This document shows positions 34,409 through 64,000 of a stretch of DNA of 64,000 bases, piece after piece (position 1 is the stretch's first letter; the number at the start of each line of letters is the position of its first letter). Origin of the DNA: a virus (lineage: Duplodnaviria; Heunggongvirae; Uroviricota; Caudoviricetes); the IMG/VR virus record IMGVR_UViG_3300024270_000010. One strand, written 5' to 3'. The position numbers were made by a program, and so were the translations under genes. The notes under the pieces were generated by a model. It worked only from the letters and a program-made list of their open reading frames with translations. It did no database searches and was not told the origin of the DNA.

Positions 34409-35314
34409 TTATGCCATAGCCTCCCTCAGCATTCTCGCACGAGCGGGATGCCGCAACTTGCGAATTGCCTTATTTTCGATCTGACGAATACGTTCCTTGG
34501 TAATGCCGTAGACCTTACCAACTTCTTCTAGGGTCATTGCCTTCTCGTGGTCAATGCCGAAACGCATCTTCATAATCTCACCTTCACGAGTGGGAAGAGT
34601 ATCCAGAACCGCACGGACAATCTGGCTGTTAGCTTCCTTGACAAGGTTGCCGTAGCCACTTTCAGCATTATGGTCTGCTACCAGGTCACCAACACTGGTT
34701 TCACCGTCTTCATCAACGGCCACATCCAGAGAAGATACTGCCTGAGAAATGTCCAGAATGGTCTGAACCTTTTCCAAATCTTCATTCAGATACTTGGCGA
34801 TTTCTTCATCGGTCGGCTGACGATGATTTTTCAGAAGTAGTTCATTGGTTGCCTTGCGGATTTTGCCCAGAAGCTCAACCATATTTGCGGGAATGCGAAT
34901 GGTGCGAGACTGGTCACCGAGCGCACGAGAAATAGACTGGCGAATCCAGTAGGTAGCATAGGTAGAGAATCTCCAACCCTTAGTACCATCATACTTCTGA
35001 GCGGCCTTTATCAGACCGAGATTGCCCTCCTGGATGAGATCAAGCAGGGGCAGACCGCAACCATAATATCTCTTTGCGATGGGAACAACCAGAAGTAGAT
35101 TACAGCTTACCAGTTCATTGATTGCGTCCTGGTCGCCCTTGAGCGCCTTTACGCTCAATTCTTTCTCCTGGTCAAAATTCAAACGGGGGTGATTACCGAT
35201 AGACTTCAGATAGGCTTTTACACCATCGAGGACTACCACATCGGCAACAGTAGCCTCGAAATCATTGAGAGCTTCCTGGGCCTCATCTTCCATAATAATT
35301 ACATTTTCTTCCAT
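34409..35314 (-). CDS. Sigma-70 family RNA polymerase sigma factor (regions 2-4)
   Basis: Region 2 YATYWIRQSI, region 4 HTH TLEEVGKVYGITKERIRQIENKAIRKL; strong GGGAGGAG RBS; 301 aa. Confidence 0.8.
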   Translation of the reverse strand: MEENVIIMEDEAQEALNDFEATVADVVVLDGVKAYLKSIGNHPRLNFDQEKELSVKALKGDQDAINELVSCNLLLVVPIAKRYYGCGLPLLDLIQEGNLGLIKAAQKYDGTKGWRFSTYATYWIRQSISRALGDQSRTIRIPANMVELLGKIRKATNELLLKNHRQPTDEEIAKYLNEDLEKVQTILDISQAVSSLDVAVDEDGETSVGDLVADHNAESGYGNLVKEANSQIVRAVLDTLPTREGEIMKMRFGIDHEKAMTLEEVGKVYGITKERIRQIENKAIRKLRHPARARMLREAMA

Positions 35315-35352
35315 TATTATGCTCCTCCCTTACTTTCTCATTTTCTATATAT

Positions 35353-35381
35353 ATTATATCATATTTTTTTATAAAAATCAA
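35353..35381 (-). promoter_or_regulatory. Class-II cassette promoter upstream of the sigma factor gene
   Basis: TTGATTtttataaaaaaatatgaTATAAT. Confidence 0.6.
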
Positions 35382-35387
35382 ATAAGC

Positions 35388-35415
35388 CCTTCCGAATGGG
35401 AAGGGCTTATATTTT
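35388..35415 (-). terminator. Rho-independent terminator (agcccttccgaatgggaagggct)
   Basis: Stem-loop plus U-run, 3' of 35424..35978. Confidence 0.55.
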
Positions 35416-35423
35416 ATCGGGAC

Positions 35424-35978
35424 TTAGCCTTTTGCGGAAGTGTCAATGGTGAGAAGCATCAAAGGCTTACCATCAAAAGAAATCCAGGGAGCAACTTCAA
35501 CTTCAACAATAGGATTATCGCTTCGCAAAGCGAAGGAAGTCATAACTTCAATGGTAGCACCAGGACGAATCTCAGTCATAGCATGATCATACTGCTTTGC
35601 AATGTCATCATCTAAAATCAAAATTGCAGGATCTAGACCAATACCATCCTGGAAAGCACTGACGCCATAAGTAGTAGCGAACATGGTGGTCTCTTCAGTG
35701 GTGTTAGTCCAAATTAGATATACGACCAGAGCAGGATTGCCTTCATAGTCTTCAACGATATCAAAACCGGTAATGTCAAAGTCCAGAATCGGTGCTTCGG
35801 GAGAAGGAATGAACTCATTGGTTGTTTCGAGCGGCAGAGTAGTTTCTACAACCTCAACATACTCAGTAGTAGGCGGAGCAGTCATGGTTTCAGTTACGGT
35901 GATCGTTTCATCACCGCCGCAGGCAACCAGAGAGAATACCATACACAGGGCCAGGATAAATGCGAAAATCTTTTTCAT
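35424..35978 (-). CDS. lipoprotein (184 aa)
   Basis: Signal MKKIFAFILALCMVFSLVACGG (lipobox); paralogous signal peptide in 36282..36668. Confidence 0.45.
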   Translation of the reverse strand: MKKIFAFILALCMVFSLVACGGDETITVTETMTAPPTTEYVEVVETTLPLETTNEFIPSPEAPILDFDITGFDIVEDYEGNPALVVYLIWTNTTEETTMFATTYGVSAFQDGIGLDPAILILDDDIAKQYDHAMTEIRPGATIEVMTSFALRSDNPIVEVEVAPWISFDGKPLMLLTIDTSAKG

Positions 35979-35996
35979 ATCTTTTACCTCTTTTAT

Positions 35997-36269
35997 TTAT
36001 TCAGTGACATCCTGGAAGCCACGCTCCCATTCAGCCATAGTTTTATCATATTCAGCGAAAATTTCTGTCTTGGTTCGCTTTAGCGCTTTACGAGCTTCCA
36101 ACCAATAGCCAAGCTGAGTCCAGGCATTATAAGAATCACAGCCAAAAGCCATCGCAGCGATTACTACGGCCCAGTATTCTGCGCGCGTCCACTGGGCGAC
36201 TGCACATACAGCCATCAGAATTGCGAGCAGTGCCCACAGAATTGCAAAAATCAGATTGCGAGTTTTCAT
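35997..36269 (-). CDS. small membrane protein (90 aa)
   Basis: Two hydrophobic helices. Confidence 0.35.
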   Translation of the reverse strand: MKTRNLIFAILWALLAILMAVCAVAQWTRAEYWAVVIAAMAFGCDSYNAWTQLGYWLEARKALKRTKTEIFAEYDKTMAEWERGFQDVTE

Positions 36270-62089: not shown

Positions 62090-62162
62090 TACACTCAACT
62101 CCTTCTATAATATATAAGGAATCTTTTGGAATATTAAATCTGTTTTGTCCAGAAATAACAAA

Positions 62163-62200
62163 AAACCCGCCTCGCCGAACGGCGAGACGGGCCGGCCGCA
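62163..62200 (-). terminator. Rho-independent terminator (cccgtctcgccgttcggcgaggcggg + T-run)
   Basis: GC-rich stem, UUUUUU on the minus strand, 3' of the vWA gene. Confidence 0.55.
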
Positions 62201-62201
62201 T

Positions 62202-63713
62202 TTAGCCGATAACCTCATAGCGAGGAGAGTCCAACTTCTCCATCATAAGATCCCAGCCAGTTTTGCCAGAAAGAATCTGTTCAAAAATACTAGGACTCAT
62301 ACCAGAAACATAAGAAATGTCTCTTACTCCAATATCTTCAGGGATATTGTTCTGTCTTGCCTGAACGTTCCAGTAGATAAGCTTAGGCATACGGTACCCA
62401 TGACGAGCCCACTTATCTCTAATAGACTCCATCAAGGTCTGAGGGTTCCAGGATTGACGACCATAACCATGACCAGTTCCTGCATCAAATTCCATATCTG
62501 ACAGAATTAGAATGTTCTGAGGCAGCTCATCCTGGCCGCAACCATTATTCAGAGCGGTCTGCAGCAACATATCGAAGGTGGCTTCGATGTTGGTGCTCTC
62601 ACACAGGTTGGTGCGGTAGATACGATAGACCTTGTCGCAGAAGTCTACGCCGCTGGTCTCGATCAGCTGAGGACGAGTGGAGAAAGATACGTAGTGGTTT
62701 GCGAAGGGGCCGTTAGCACGCTCGGCGCAGTACAGACCCAGGGAAATAGCTACGTTCAGAGGAGTTGCGTCACCGCCGTACCAGGTCATGGAAGCGGAGG
62801 TATCAACAACAGCCAGACCATTGAAGGACTTGCCGTTGAAGTAATCCTGCAGGTTCTCCCAGTACTTGTTCACCATCAGACGATCGGTGTTATCGATAGG
62901 CAGATGGCAAGCACGCAAAGCCTTGGAAACAACCTCGTAAGGATACAGAGCCTTGGCGTTAACCTTGGTGGTAGTATCCTTGGCGAAAGCCTCGTAGGTC
63001 TTGACCTCGGGATTGCGCTTCATACGCTCAATGTCGTGACGAGCAAAGGCGTTCTTGTACTTGATACCGGCCTTAGAAGGGATCTTATCGAACTCGATCT
63101 CATCCCAACGACCCTCGGACATCAGACGCTCCAGGACGTTGATGCGGGCACGCAGAACAGACAGAGTCTTACGGTACTGCTTGGGGGTCATGCCAATGAA
63201 CTTACGAACCTTGGCAGCAGTCTTCTTAGTCTTCACAGAGGAAGTGTTCTCAGAAGGCATCCACTTACCCAGCAGAGAAGGGGTCTTACATTGGACGTCC
63301 AAAGCCAGCTGATGTTTGACGATGTTCAGTGCGTCAGCCTCCAGAGGAGTACCGATGAACACGAACAGGTCATCCCATCGACCGAACTCAGGGACGTGAG
63401 TCAGGTTACGACGCATAGCGTCAGTATCGTAGGAAGCCAGCCACTTAGTAGCGACACGGAAGAACCGGCGCTCACCCTGGCCACCGCGCACGTCACGGAT
63501 GTAGAACAGACACTTCAGAGCGTAAGAAGGATTCTCGTCGAAAGCCTTCTTAAACAGGAAGATAACATCTTCATCGGTGCGGGTACGGTAGGCCGCACCC
63601 ATAGCGAACAGGTCCATCAGACCGTCCATGGTAGACTTATGAGTCAGGGCACCATTCTCAGTGCGAGTGTAGTTAGAAGCGGACTTCATACCTTCCAGAA
63701 AAATATTGCTCAT
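62202..63713 (-). CDS. von Willebrand factor A domain protein (TROVE/DUF2828-like N-terminal region), 503 aa
   Basis: MIDAS motif DTSASM with downstream vWA blocks; function unknown. Confidence 0.5.
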   Translation of the reverse strand: MSNIFLEGMKSASNYTRTENGALTHKSTMDGLMDLFAMGAAYRTRTDEDVIFLFKKAFDENPSYALKCLFYIRDVRGGQGERRFFRVATKWLASYDTDAMRRNLTHVPEFGRWDDLFVFIGTPLEADALNIVKHQLALDVQCKTPSLLGKWMPSENTSSVKTKKTAAKVRKFIGMTPKQYRKTLSVLRARINVLERLMSEGRWDEIEFDKIPSKAGIKYKNAFARHDIERMKRNPEVKTYEAFAKDTTTKVNAKALYPYEVVSKALRACHLPIDNTDRLMVNKYWENLQDYFNGKSFNGLAVVDTSASMTWYGGDATPLNVAISLGLYCAERANGPFANHYVSFSTRPQLIETSGVDFCDKVYRIYRTNLCESTNIEATFDMLLQTALNNGCGQDELPQNILILSDMEFDAGTGHGYGRQSWNPQTLMESIRDKWARHGYRMPKLIYWNVQARQNNIPEDIGVRDISYVSGMSPSIFEQILSGKTGWDLMMEKLDSPRYEVIG

Positions 63714-63800
63714 AATTTAATTCTCCTTTTTCTCATTGATTCCTCTTGGACAAGAGGAAAATTTTATTTTGTATTTCTTATCTCTTTACCTTACAAATAT

Positions 63801-63829
63801 ATTATATCATATTTTTTTTGAAAAATCAA
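63801..63829 (-). promoter_or_regulatory. Class-II cassette promoter; its -35 box overlaps the TAA stop of the upstream HNH gene
   Basis: TTGATTtttcaaaaaaaatatgaTATAAT. Confidence 0.55.
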
Positions 63830-63835
63830 ATATGA

Positions 63836-64000
63836 TTACATTGCACTGGACTTATCGGTATTGCATCGGCGGCACAGCATCTGACAATTGGACTCAATTG
63901 TCTTACCGCCCTTAGACCAGGGAATGATATGATCGGCGTGCATGGAAGTTCGAGCATAGTGCTTGCCGCAGATGGGGCAATAACCCTTCTGCTTCTCATA
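63836..64000 (-). CDS. HNH endonuclease, C-terminal part (N-terminus lies outside the window)
   Basis: ...[25 protein letters not shown]...[10 protein letters not shown] carries the HNH H-N-H/N motif. Confidence 0.6.

Follow-up and report, generated by a model that had tools for sequence, protein, structure and literature searches.

The question raised by this locus is whether a phage that carries both its own sigma factor gene and TAG-recoded late genes uses the sigma factor to switch on late transcription. The DNA analysed, called the window here, is a stretch of 64,000 nucleotides from a virus of the Caudoviricetes (IMG/VR record IMGVR_UViG_3300024270_000010). A first-pass annotation had proposed a two-layer switch, with one layer in transcription and one in translation. 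No nucleotide match to the window was present among 50,697 GenBank phage records, and a search of the window against Rfam gave no matches. The best explanation of the source is a phage with TAG recoded to glutamine, a genome of roughly 180-220 kb, and a host among the Clostridia of the gut or rumen.

The sigma factor gene lies in the following context:

35353-35412, minus strand, class-II cassette of the sigma gene (hairpin at about 35412-35388, TTGATT at 35381-35376, 17-nt spacer, TGATATAAT)
34409-35314, minus strand, SigA/RpoD-like sigma factor gene (301 aa, regions 1.2 to 4.2, without region 1.1, no in-frame TAG)
33972-34331, minus strand, 119-aa lipoprotein-like ORF, probably in one transcript with the sigma gene and followed by a terminator at about 33971-33945; this neighbour was not conserved in relatives

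Pfam assigned regions 1.2, 2, 3 and 4 to the protein, which confirms the annotated sigma-70-family gene and adds two regions to the annotated 2 and 4. The protein matched phrog_351 (1e-83), and its best solved relatives were the Firmicutes SigA structures 8x6f and 7ckq, with about 57% identity and E values of 3e-77 to 1e-76 in alignments across regions 1.2 to 4.2. The NCBIfam RpoD score was 311 bits, below the cut-off of 572. An identical protein occurs on 23 contigs, which reach 220 kb in length. By tblastn none of the GenBank phage records exceeded 50% identity; the genes annotated as rpoD in Microcystis phage MaAM05 and Acinetobacter phage MD-2021a reached 44-45%.

The contact residues Y430, W434, Q437, R441, E458, E585, R586, R588 and Q589 were all retained, and the same nine were present in 59 to 65 of 65 distinct viral homologues. 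Position 584 was R in 50 of these homologues and K in 15. At contact or near-contact positions the window sigma differed from host-type SigA by W433Y, T440S, H455N and R584K, all conservative changes. Because the promoter-contact residues are conserved or conservatively changed, the protein is predicted to read the -35/-10 consensus of the cassettes themselves, and judged from its sequence it should read sigma-A-type promoters such as these. The loss of region 1.1 could shift its promoter preference. It appears to substitute for the host factor rather than to act as a dedicated late-gene switch.

The class-II cassette consists of a terminator followed by a promoter of the form TTGATT-N17-TGnTATAAT, and 14 near-identical copies occur in the window. 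A weight matrix built from these 14 copies gave scores of 56-68 bits, compared with a shuffle maximum of -2.4. The class-II promoter previously assigned to the sigma gene was read directly in the sequence and scored 63.6 bits; its -10 element ends at 35353 and is followed by a ribosome-binding site and the ATG at 35314. The strong sigma-A-type promoters (-35/17/extended -10) were all on the coding (minus) strand (22 of 22), and none was on the plus strand. The remaining class-II promoters and those of class I are:

63801-63829, minus strand, class II, 63.7 bits, upstream of a TROVE/Ro-like gene (62202-63713)
47490-47518, minus strand, class II, 59.0 bits, upstream of a vault-protein-like gene (44943-47444); low-coordinate edge of the late block, with a terminator at 47561-47534
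44877-44905, minus strand, class II, 64.7 bits
41711-41739, minus strand, class II, 56.2 bits, directly upstream of a TAG-containing HNH-like gene (40900-41628)
39736-39764, minus strand, class II, 62.2 bits
33827-33855, minus strand, class II, 64.2 bits, upstream of an RNase T-like exonuclease gene
29945-29973, minus strand, class II, 60.9 bits
29211-29239, minus strand, class II, 61.8 bits
26125-26153, minus strand, class II, 59.3 bits
21980-22008, minus strand, class II, 67.5 bits
20531-20559, minus strand, class II, 68.2 bits
19203-19231, minus strand, class II, 59.0 bits
18234-18262, minus strand, class II, 66.6 bits
10278-10250, minus strand, intermediate class-I copy (promoter scan and weight matrix)
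2124-2096, 2386-2358 and 4429-4401, minus strand, three class-I promoters (TTGACA, A5T5-containing spacer, TATAAT) preceding replication genes (NAD ligase and others)

The class-II cassettes might be the cognate promoters of the phage sigma and form a self-reinforcing middle regulon, in which host sigma-A gives a basal start and the sigma lacking region 1.1 then takes over TTGATT/extended -10 promoters without UP elements. The terminator abuts the -35 element and leaves no room for an UP element, whereas class III promoters have an upstream A-tract. The sigma gene usually bears a class-II-type promoter itself, and sigma and class-II-type promoters occur together although the sigmas have diverged to 43-50% identity. 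Conservation of the core (TTGATT, spacer and downstream ATATAT) far exceeds that of coding sequence, at 90-96% across phages with a gene identity of only about 70%, and TTGATT is the -35 element in 238 of 291 class-II copies. However, sigma and promoter do not covary, as phages with R584/W433/H455 and phages with K584/Y433/N455 share TTGATT class-II promoters. The pattern is also that of a good host-type promoter and is fitted by the promoter of a chromosomal gene of Ruminococcus flavefaciens, and a gene whose transcription requires its own product still needs recognition by the host sigma. We regard a cognate relationship as unlikely. The surrogate role that we prefer does not explain the strict class-II spacer and downstream ATATAT, or the use of TTGATT rather than TTGACA.

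The genes of the late block and two TAG-containing genes outside it are:

61337-62161, minus strand, HNH homing endonuclease; TAG at 61987 aligns with Gln of an internal repeat
59467-59928, minus strand, protein with a tail-fibre N-terminal domain (16 PHROG families, mostly tail-fibre/tail-spike)
58207-59436, minus strand, Ala-rich coiled-coil fibre-like protein (one in-frame TAG; zero matches in a PHROG search)
57677-58105, minus strand, 142-aa ORF (five in-frame TAG)
56444-57670, minus strand, DGR target protein 2, a tail protein (phrog_5302 at 8e-49; no TAG)
56277-56402, minus strand, DGR template repeat 2 (36 of 37 TR2-to-VR2 mismatches at TR adenines)
54910-56055, minus strand, DGR reverse transcriptase (381 aa, 11 in-frame TAG, GC 23%; phrog_1423 at 5.9e-101 with TAG translated as Q)
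53436-54629, minus strand, DGR target protein 1, a paralogue of tail protein phrog_5302 (VR1 at about 53453-53578; two in-frame TAG, opposite Gln in the paralogue)
53242-53367, minus strand, DGR template repeat 1 (26 of 32 TR1-to-VR1 mismatches at TR adenines)
47574-51755, minus strand, Ser/Thr-rich protein of 1,393 aa, labelled fibre-like because of its composition and its location among tail genes (three in-frame TAG; continuous only with TAG as sense)
10917-12281, minus strand, endolysin, its two halves joined via an in-frame TAG at 11804

The DGR reported in this block is real, with the reverse transcriptase and adenine-specific TR/VR mismatches both present. The concentration of TAG recoding in the 47.5-60.3 kb block also held: the 3,810 codons of the block contain 23 in-frame TAG, and the 10,550 codons between 12.6 and 47.5 kb contain 4 (Fisher p=2.9e-10). 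Recoding was, however, not confined to the block. Outside the block TAG was found in the endolysin gene and in the HNH genes 40900-41628 (at 41586 and 41010) and 61337-62161. Enrichment in TAG is seen for tail-fibre, DGR, lysis and homing-endonuclease genes of the window. The codon is read as Gln, as it aligns with Q in paralogues, and genes in the window end in TAA or TGA and never in TAG, the gene caller having been set to treat TAG as sense.

Within the block the following promoters were located:

60274-60301, minus strand, weak promoter candidate (TTAAGA-16-TATAAT) upstream of gene 59944-60234, where the minus-strand late block begins
58124-58193, minus strand, terminator hairpin (58193-58159) followed by TTGACT-N17-TGTTAAAAT (58152-58124), heading gene 57677-58105
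52724-52752, minus strand, diverged class-II-like promoter (TTGATT-N17-TGATATAAT, 28.2 bits), preceded by a hairpin at about 52826-52783

The block had been described as free of class-II copies. No full copy was present in 47531-60300, where the density in the neighbouring regions would predict about 4.95 (Poisson P(0)=0.007), but the block does contain the diverged cassette at 52752-52724, which heads an operon of gene 51806-52687 and the TAG-containing 1,393-aa fibre gene (47574-51755). This cassette had been overlooked in the first-pass annotation. The TTGACT-N17-TAAAAT reported at 58124 was recovered as site 58152-58124, with an extended -10 TG in addition; it has the cassette architecture of class II with a different spacer. 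A weak candidate had been placed near 60250. It exists but is better sited at 60301-60274, where it falls under the strong-promoter threshold of the scan, and the match at 60261-60233 overlaps a ribosome-binding site and start codon. Strong sigma-A-type promoters numbered 2 per 11 genes in the block versus 14 per 51 elsewhere (Fisher p=0.71), and by length 2 were observed against 5.3 expected (P=0.10). With two strong sites and these values, the window itself gives no compelling statistical case for the claimed scarcity of recognisable sigma70 promoters in the block.

The suppressor tRNA and the structural operon were observed in relatives, the nearest being contig 3300032167_000002, whose sigma is 72% identical; in this genome we infer both to lie beyond the window. 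The TAG-rich operon of the relatives contains phrog_5767, terminase, a likely portal and a likely capsid protein, and in 25 of 25 dereplicated relatives a strong sigma-A-type promoter heads it. After the first gene, sigma-A-type promoters are almost absent from this 14-kb operon, which would also fit another late mechanism. A class-II-type promoter lies within 300 nt of about 10 of 16 distinct tRNA(CUA) genes. The relatives also have class III promoters, which are dense, carry the upstream A-tract and are putatively the earliest class.

These data bear on the transcriptional layer of the two-layer switch, in which host sigma-A reads the cassettes early and the phage sigma, with TAG decoding, acts on distinct promoters of late fibre, DGR and structural genes. 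The sigma gene belongs to the class-II set and not to the dense, probably early class III, which fits a cascade, and an amber-suppressor tRNA adjoins it in several relatives (tRNA(CUA) at 0.07-3.8 kb in 8 of 79 sigma loci). The shortage of internal promoters in the structural operon (n=25) points the same way, and canonical promoters are also missing before late genes in phage K and comparable large phages of Firmicutes (PMC11598898). However, the promoter-contact residues are sigma-A-like and near-invariant across the viral clade, and no shared non-sigma-A motif was seen on inspection upstream of late genes, where the intergenic gaps of 11-30 nt contain only ribosome-binding sites. Sigma-A-type cassettes stand in front of the TAG-bearing operons of the block (58152 and 52752), a promoter of this type also opens the structural operon in all 25 relatives, and TAG genes are found immediately after class-II promoters (41739 in the window and L003 in a relative). 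Distinct late promoters read by the phage sigma are thus unsupported by the sequence, and we consider this reading quite improbable. The cassettes can also not be regarded simply as early host-sigma promoters. Their timing needs revision, since class-II cassettes also drive the suppressor tRNA in relatives and look like the class that installs the switch.

Late transcription through the conserved but very divergent 350-aa phrog_5767 'sigma factor' protein, with the SigA-like protein unrelated to the late switch, is very unlikely: the protein matches its PHROG at 2e-51, one segment resembles region 4 by eye (FGIKHSVEYISSLWRNKIPKLIA), and its gene heads the relatives' structural operon with 3-5 in-frame TAG at varying positions, upstream of terminase in 71 of 71 related loci holding its sequence (8 loci without it include too little DNA upstream of terminase), but 'sigma factor' is a database name only, Pfam gave no sigma domain at E<=1, solved structures were matched by neither sequence nor profile, hhalign against the SigA-like family gave a probability of 0.3%, the AlphaFold model was unusable (mean pLDDT 49), and the gene is known from relatives, none having been seen in the window.

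The closest known systems include the gut phages with TAG recoded to Gln (code 15; Borges et al., 10.1101/2021.08.26.457843), especially the Jade, Sapphire and Agate clades of large phages that infect Firmicutes. The likeness lies in the recoding, a genome of roughly 150-220 kb and the animal gut or rumen habitat. Structural, lysis and fibre genes carry in-frame TAG while replication and auxiliary genes remain compatible with the standard code, the recoded modules are scattered along the genome, and relatives have a suppressor tRNA(CUA). Recoding is proposed to hold back the late and lytic proteins. Promoters are not discussed in that study (the word 'promoter' occurs zero times), whereas here the recoded modules are placed against three sigma-A-type promoter families, one of which is connected with the suppressor tRNA. 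In the tRNA-Sup/theta-ribozyme model of the code switch the trigger is poorly understood (Kienbeck et al. 2024, PMC10879173); the lead obtained here is transcriptional, namely class-II cassettes in front of the tRNA(CUA) genes of relatives.

RpoD-like sigmas of group 2 jumbo phages are thought to recruit the host core polymerase (Iyer et al. 2021, PMC7824862). The window sigma is likewise a near-complete cellular-type factor with no RNA polymerase of the phage's own in the region seen, but resembles Firmicutes SigA most closely and has no region 1.1. Staphylococcus phage K and other Herelleviridae have canonical -35, -10 and extended -10 promoters at early and middle genes and no clear ones at late structural genes (PMC11598898), a distribution similar to that found here. 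Unlike phage K, which as far as that report goes has neither a SigA-like sigma nor recoding, the phages studied here have both, and a canonical promoter heads the relatives' structural operon. As in Bacillus phage SPO1 (gp28, gp33/34) and T4 (gp55/gp33), a phage sigma of an earlier class could time later genes, and the dense, strong host-type early promoters of those phages are comparable to the relatives' class III. The SPO1 and T4 sigmas differ greatly from sigma-A, and the promoters that they recognise are clearly distinct in sequence. The recognition residues of the window sigma are, in contrast, sigma-A-like, and a distinct late motif was not found on inspection.

The SigA-like sigma and the TAG-recoded late genes of the window are both real, and both are of already known kinds. 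In the scheme that we prefer, host-core binding, promoter specificity and the timing of each promoter class are predictions from the DNA. The phage sigma would bind the host core RNA polymerase and read the phage's sigma-A-type promoters (-35 TTGAYW, 17 bp, TGnTATAAT), acting as a surrogate or booster for host sigma-A that retains the enzyme on the phage genome. A switch of specificity to late promoters is probably not its function. For the fibre, DGR, structural and lysis proteins the main delay would lie in translation, and genes with in-frame TAG would be completed only after the phage amber-suppressor tRNA(CUA) accumulates. This translational layer of the earlier proposal is supported and fits the published model (Borges et al., 10.1101/2021.08.26.457843). 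To the scheme as a whole, with a sigma-A surrogate, a TAG-based translational delay and a class-II middle regulon, we assign about an even chance. Since relatives express the suppressor tRNA from class-II-type cassettes, these cassettes would form a middle regulon through which both the sigma factor and the change of code are introduced.

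Nearly all genes of the window lie on the minus strand. Their content by region was as follows.

Gene content of the window
0-14 kb: NAD-dependent DNA ligase, topoisomerase II subunits, RNase H, PhoH, endolysin
14-47.5 kb: NAMPT and other NAD-salvage genes; RNA-repair genes (Thg1-like, RNA-ligase-like, RNase T-like); phosphoesterases; a vault-protein-like gene; the sigma gene (34409-35314, minus strand)
47.5-60.3 kb (late block): fibre-like proteins, some with tail-fibre or tail-protein matches, and the diversity-generating retroelement (DGR)
Right end of the window: HNH endonuclease and TROVE/Ro-like gene

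Identical copies of the sigma protein are encoded on 23 contigs from metagenomes, the longest being 220 kb. Among GenBank phages, no nucleotide match to the window was obtained by megablast with a 20 kb query, and all sigma matches obtained by tblastn were below 50% identity; no annotated relative was available. No Rfam family, Y-RNA included, reached the gathering threshold in the window. The only convincing plus-strand gene (60457-61191) encodes 244 aa without a family match; a bidirectional terminator (61197-61231) lies beside it, and upstream there is no strong promoter of the sigma-A type. Two adjoining genes share 5' ends of 68 nt (35911-35978 and 36601-36668) that are 85% identical and were interpreted as coding for a lipoprotein signal peptide; the product of one of these genes is a DUF5067 protein, typical of Firmicutes. 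An RNA-repair-like set on the minus strand (31125-33787, 37058-37840, 62202-63713) comprises an RNA-ligase-like protein, an RNase T-like exonuclease, a Thg1-like tRNA-His guanylyltransferase and a TROVE/Ro60-like RNA-binding protein.

The first-pass annotation had described the sigma gene product as a sigma-70-family factor with regions 2 and 4. Both regions were recovered by Pfam, and regions 1.2 and 3 were found in addition (Sigma70_r1_2, 1e-7; r2, 9e-18; r3, 1e-17; r4, 3e-18; all above gathering scores). The best solved relatives were Firmicutes SigA proteins, with E values of about 1e-77. About 25 residues precede region 1.2 in the protein, and region 1.1 is considered missing because the alignments begin only at SigA residue 78-83; a 341-aa relative (locus L073) retains part of the N-terminal extension. 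In NCBIfam the best match was NF006666 RpoD with 311 bits against a cut-off of 572, and TIGR02393 scored 284 against 354. Judged by its sequence, the protein resembles sigma-A without being a true orthologue of the housekeeping RpoD. RpoD-like sigma factors of large phages are already known (PMC7824862).

In E. coli sigma-70 numbering, Y430, W434, R436, Q437, R441, E458, E585, R586, R588 and Q589 are kept in the window protein, and W433Y, T440S, H455N and R584K are altered. For the set that contacts the -10, extended -10 and -35 elements (Y430, W433/W434, Q437, T440, R441, H455, E458, R584, E585, R586, R588, Q589), eight positions were counted as identical and four as altered. Across 65 distinct homologues encoded on viral contigs (43 to 75% identical), the contact positions vary little or not at all. 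These homologues were gathered with an alignment as the query, as a locus search with a single protein had given only one relative. The contacts between sigma-70 and its promoters are well established. From these and the kept residues the protein is predicted to recognize a TTGACA-like -35 and a TATAAT-like -10 element with extended -10. Recognition determinants diverged from those of the host primary sigma, as in the late-switch factors SPO1 gp28/gp34 and T4 gp55, were thus not found. Covariation of residue 584 (K or R) with the fifth base of the -35 element (T or C) was considered and rejected, as phages with R584 (75% and 48% identity) also use TTGATT. A conserved anti-sigma factor or partner beside the sigma gene was likewise discarded; relatives do not conserve the lipoprotein-like ORF of 119 aa that follows the sigma gene.

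Three families of sigma-A-type promoters, classes I to III, occur in this phage and its relatives. Class II is represented in the window by 14 copies of a 45-nt core, TTGATTTTT-ATAAAAAAATATG-W-TATAAT-ATATAT, and TTGATT-17-TG-N-TATAAT is present in all 14. In the printed flanks a terminator hairpin was seen by eye immediately upstream of the -35 element in about 10 of the 14, and every copy is followed by a purine-rich ribosome-binding site and a start codon. The copies scored 56-68 bits with a weight matrix built from them, while the maximum after shuffling was -2.4. One of them, at 35412-35353, belongs to the sigma gene, as had been proposed. Class I (TTGACA, A5T5 spacer, TATAAT) is related to class II and stands in front of replication genes at 2.1-4.4 kb. 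Strong sigma-A-type sites numbered 22 on the minus (coding) strand and 0 on the plus strand. Judging from these features, the cassette sites would be real promoters in all but experimental proof. The 17-nt spacers of classes I (2096-4429) and II are AT-tract palindromes of opposite polarity, A5T5 and T5-AT-A5+, respectively; they could be operator sites or cause the DNA to bend differently.

Class-II cassettes also precede several accessory genes. One lies in front of the gene for an 833-aa protein (44943-47444, minus strand) with major-vault-protein domains (MVP_shoulder and a faint Vault_3) and no PHROG match. Others precede NAD-salvage and NAD-related genes at 23833-29176 on the minus strand (NAMPT, SIR2-like, YqeY, phosphoribosyltransferase, isochorismatase-like), which may form a counter-defence module for NAD reconstitution.

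In IMG/VR, contigs of 130-400 kb contain the class-II motif in more than 112 stretches; there the promoter core was 90-96% identical versus about 70% for the flanking genes. Contigs with this promoter motif came largely from ruminant gut samples and were binned mostly with Clostridia. When bacterial genomes were scanned for the pattern, most matches fell on phage-like contigs that had been placed in Clostridia MAGs of ruminant-gut origin, a kind of binning that is unreliable for host assignment. A chromosomal promoter of Ruminococcus flavefaciens MA2007 (NZ_JHXF01000026.1; 6527-6555 of locus L304) also fits the pattern, TTGATT-TTTTCAAAAAAATATGT-TATAAT, and its surroundings show no homology to phages; from the N-terminal sequence, our guess is that the gene behind it encodes a metallophosphoesterase.

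In the late block, reading TAG as a sense codon fuses fragmented ORFs into the following long genes.

In-frame TAG codons in genes of the late block
Fibre gene: 3
DGR target 1: 2
Reverse transcriptase: 11
57677-58105, 142-aa ORF: 5
58207-59436, coiled-coil fibre-like gene: 1

The reverse transcriptase read through TAG matched phrog_1423 with 6e-101 over residues 1-346, and this gene, the fibre gene, the DGR target and the endolysin are intact only with TAG as sense. For three TAG positions the aligned residue was Q, in the DGR target paralogue or in a repeat within an HNH protein, and TAG was assigned to Gln. None of the called minus-strand genes ends at TAG, all stops being TAA or TGA; the gene caller took TAG as sense, and the support for TAG not serving as a stop is the extension of each former TAG stop into a plausible longer ORF. 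The concentration of TAG in the late block noted in the first-pass annotation was confirmed, with 6.0 per 1,000 codons versus 0.4 at 12.6-47.5 kb (p=3e-10). Outside the block, in-frame TAG was seen in the endolysin gene and two HNH genes of low GC, one of which is directly preceded by a full class-II cassette. Three low-GC genes (29-32%; 37854-38591, 40900-41628 and 61337-62161, minus strand) share DNA repeats with a Cys-rich motif. In-frame TAG is present in two of them, and a family search confirmed an HNH homing endonuclease for 61337-62161 alone. The relatives had 3-13 TAG per 1,000 codons in the structural operon versus 1-2 in the small-gene array. Six of their TAG-rich genes behind class II were annotated, among them two homing endonucleases and one fibre gene, and the small contig L092 has a terminase and portal; these genes neither cleanly support nor refute the model. 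The TAG pattern of the window is that described for large recoded gut phages of Firmicutes, in which recoded late genes are already known (10.1101/2021.08.26.457843).

The DGR (53199-57670) contains one reverse transcriptase and two cognate pairs of template (TR) and variable (VR) repeats.

Repeat pairs of the DGR
53242-53367, TR1; VR1 within 53436-54629; 26 of 32 mismatches at TR adenines
56277-56402, TR2; VR2 within 56444-57670; 36 of 37 mismatches at TR adenines

The target gene of each pair has its TR immediately downstream, and the same hairpin, AACTCTCTTTGAGAGTT, comes after both TRs. The element thus combines a reverse transcriptase with TR/VR pairs that differ specifically at adenines, as expected of a DGR.

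No tRNA of any kind, suppressors included, was detected in the 64-kb window. Related loci carry tRNA arrays of up to 28 genes and 18 tRNA(CUA) genes, 16 of them distinct; two of the 18 are on contig 3300032167_000002, the closest large relative. In the relatives, the majority of the tRNA(CUA) genes that were read begin with UGGGG and end with CCCC-N-GCCA, ends that we take to resemble those of tRNA-Gln. A class-II-type promoter was present within 300 nt upstream of about 10 of the 16 distinct genes and class III in none, a count biased by the choice of the first 112 loci by the class-II pattern. Among loci picked by the sigma gene alone, 4 of 8 tRNA(CUA) genes had a class-II-type promoter. Of 79 sigma loci, 8 have the suppressor close to the sigma gene, at a distance of 0.07-3.8 kb. 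A class-II-type promoter is usual at the sigma gene too, even where the sigma protein is only 43-50% identical. In two loci (L104 4193-4450 and L101 2354-2520), pieces resembling a tRNA 3' half and then a 5' half, with complementary flanks, lie between the class-II-type promoter and tRNA(CUA); they could represent a permuted or fragmented tRNA, or a processing element.

The terminase of one locus with the class-II motif led to 80 related loci, from which 25 dereplicated genomes were compared. Their layout was constant, with a class-III array of small genes, a divergent promoter region and a packed 14-kb operon. Class III consists of TTGACAAA, a GC-rich spacer and TGTGnTATAAT, with an upstream A-tract; a perfect copy precedes each small gene, giving about 2 promoters per kb. 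The arrays (loci L114-L192, for example L129 1-7600) have very small genes and lie directly beside the terminase module. They are probably the earliest gene set. The 14-kb operon begins with the phrog_5767 gene, phrog_3314 and the terminase; the three proteins that follow look like portal, scaffold and major capsid protein, putative assignments made by size and position.

The most economical reading, to which we give about an even chance, is that class III acts early, class II drives a middle regulon, late proteins are gated by the suppressor and the sigma factor reads the phage's sigma-A-type promoters. The early role of class III would correspond to the dense early promoter arrays of SPO1-like and K-like phages. 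Class II would then supply auxiliary and counter-defence functions, the sigma-A-like factor, tRNAs and the suppressor, and late proteins could be translated only after the suppressor had accumulated. The sigma factor, its promoter specificity unswitched, is predicted to act on promoters of sigma-A type in the phage itself, which would maintain transcription of phage DNA or shift the balance in its favour. A variant of this reading, in which class II is the specific target of the phage sigma, appears unlikely.

The first-pass annotation had proposed instead that cassette promoters read by the host sigma act early, and the phage sigma together with TAG decoding late. Two of its premises were a lack of class-II copies and a scarcity of sigma70 promoters in the late block. 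No full class-II copy was indeed found in 47531-60300, where about 5 were expected (P=0.007), but a diverged class-II-like cassette of 28 bits is present at 52752-52724, with a terminator and TTGATT-17-TGATATAAT, upstream of 51806-52687 and the gene for a 1,393-aa fibre protein. The TTGACT promoter reported at 58124 was recovered as TTGACT-17-TGTTAAAAT at 58152-58124, with a terminator at 58193-58159 and the same cassette architecture as at 52752; the weak candidate reported at 60250 also exists, but was placed at 60301-60274. The supposed scarcity was not significant, with 2 strong sites for 11 genes versus 14 for 51 next door (p=0.71), and the late block is not promoter-poor in any meaningful sense. 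In the intergenic regions of the block and in the relatives' structural operons, only sigma-A-type sites and no non-host-type motif were seen by eye before late genes; the gaps inspected were 11-30 nt, and -10-only or intragenic promoters could be missed.

The 14-kb operon of the relatives has almost no sigma-A-type promoter apart from a strong one at its head. The structural genes being without internal cassettes favours the late-sigma proposal, while the launch of the operon from a sigma-A-type promoter argues against a new promoter specificity. Late genes without host-type promoters were thus not found, the sites at 58152 and 52752 and the one heading the structural operon all being of sigma-A type. 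Late genes without canonical promoters are already known from big Firmicutes phages (PMC11598898). On balance, a late role of the phage sigma is quite unlikely.

The gene at the head of the structural operon (phrog_5767; L129 7686-8738, with orthologues in 71 loci) is conserved, encodes 350 aa and contains 3-5 in-frame TAG. Its product has a C-terminal CxxC...CxxC motif and is labelled 'sigma factor' in PHROGs. A late role for this protein is the least likely explanation, as the label is a database name, no sigma domain was confirmed by Pfam or by phmmer and profile searches against PDB sequences, hhalign against the SigA-like family gave a probability of 0.3%, and an AlphaFold2 model from a shallow alignment was unusable (pLDDT 49).

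For recoded gut phages, suppressor tRNAs have been proposed to time late and lytic protein synthesis, and the trigger of the switch is poorly understood (PMC10879173). The main survey of these phages contains no promoter analysis (10.1101/2021.08.26.457843). In the literature consulted, an insulated terminator-promoter cassette strictly conserved across a phage clade, and its place before both a sigma factor and an amber suppressor, are apparently unreported; both bear on this trigger. With clear promoter classes, and with class II before the sigma gene and, in relatives, the suppressor, the timing set out in the preferred reading can be tested in metatranscriptomes or in a cultured host. The cassettes, compact and insulated by terminator, strong promoter and ribosome-binding site and conserved in many Clostridia phages, may also serve as genetic parts. 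If the sigma factor is only a surrogate, the arrangement would be an ordinary co-occurrence of two known phage strategies. A bolder and very doubtful proposal is that the class-II cassette is a 'code-switch regulon' of the whole clade of large Clostridia phages, co-expressing a sigma-A surrogate and the amber-suppressor tRNA, with late transcription awaiting the code switch through the TAG-containing phrog_5767 gene. If true, it would be a wired transcription-translation cascade and would answer what triggers recoding.
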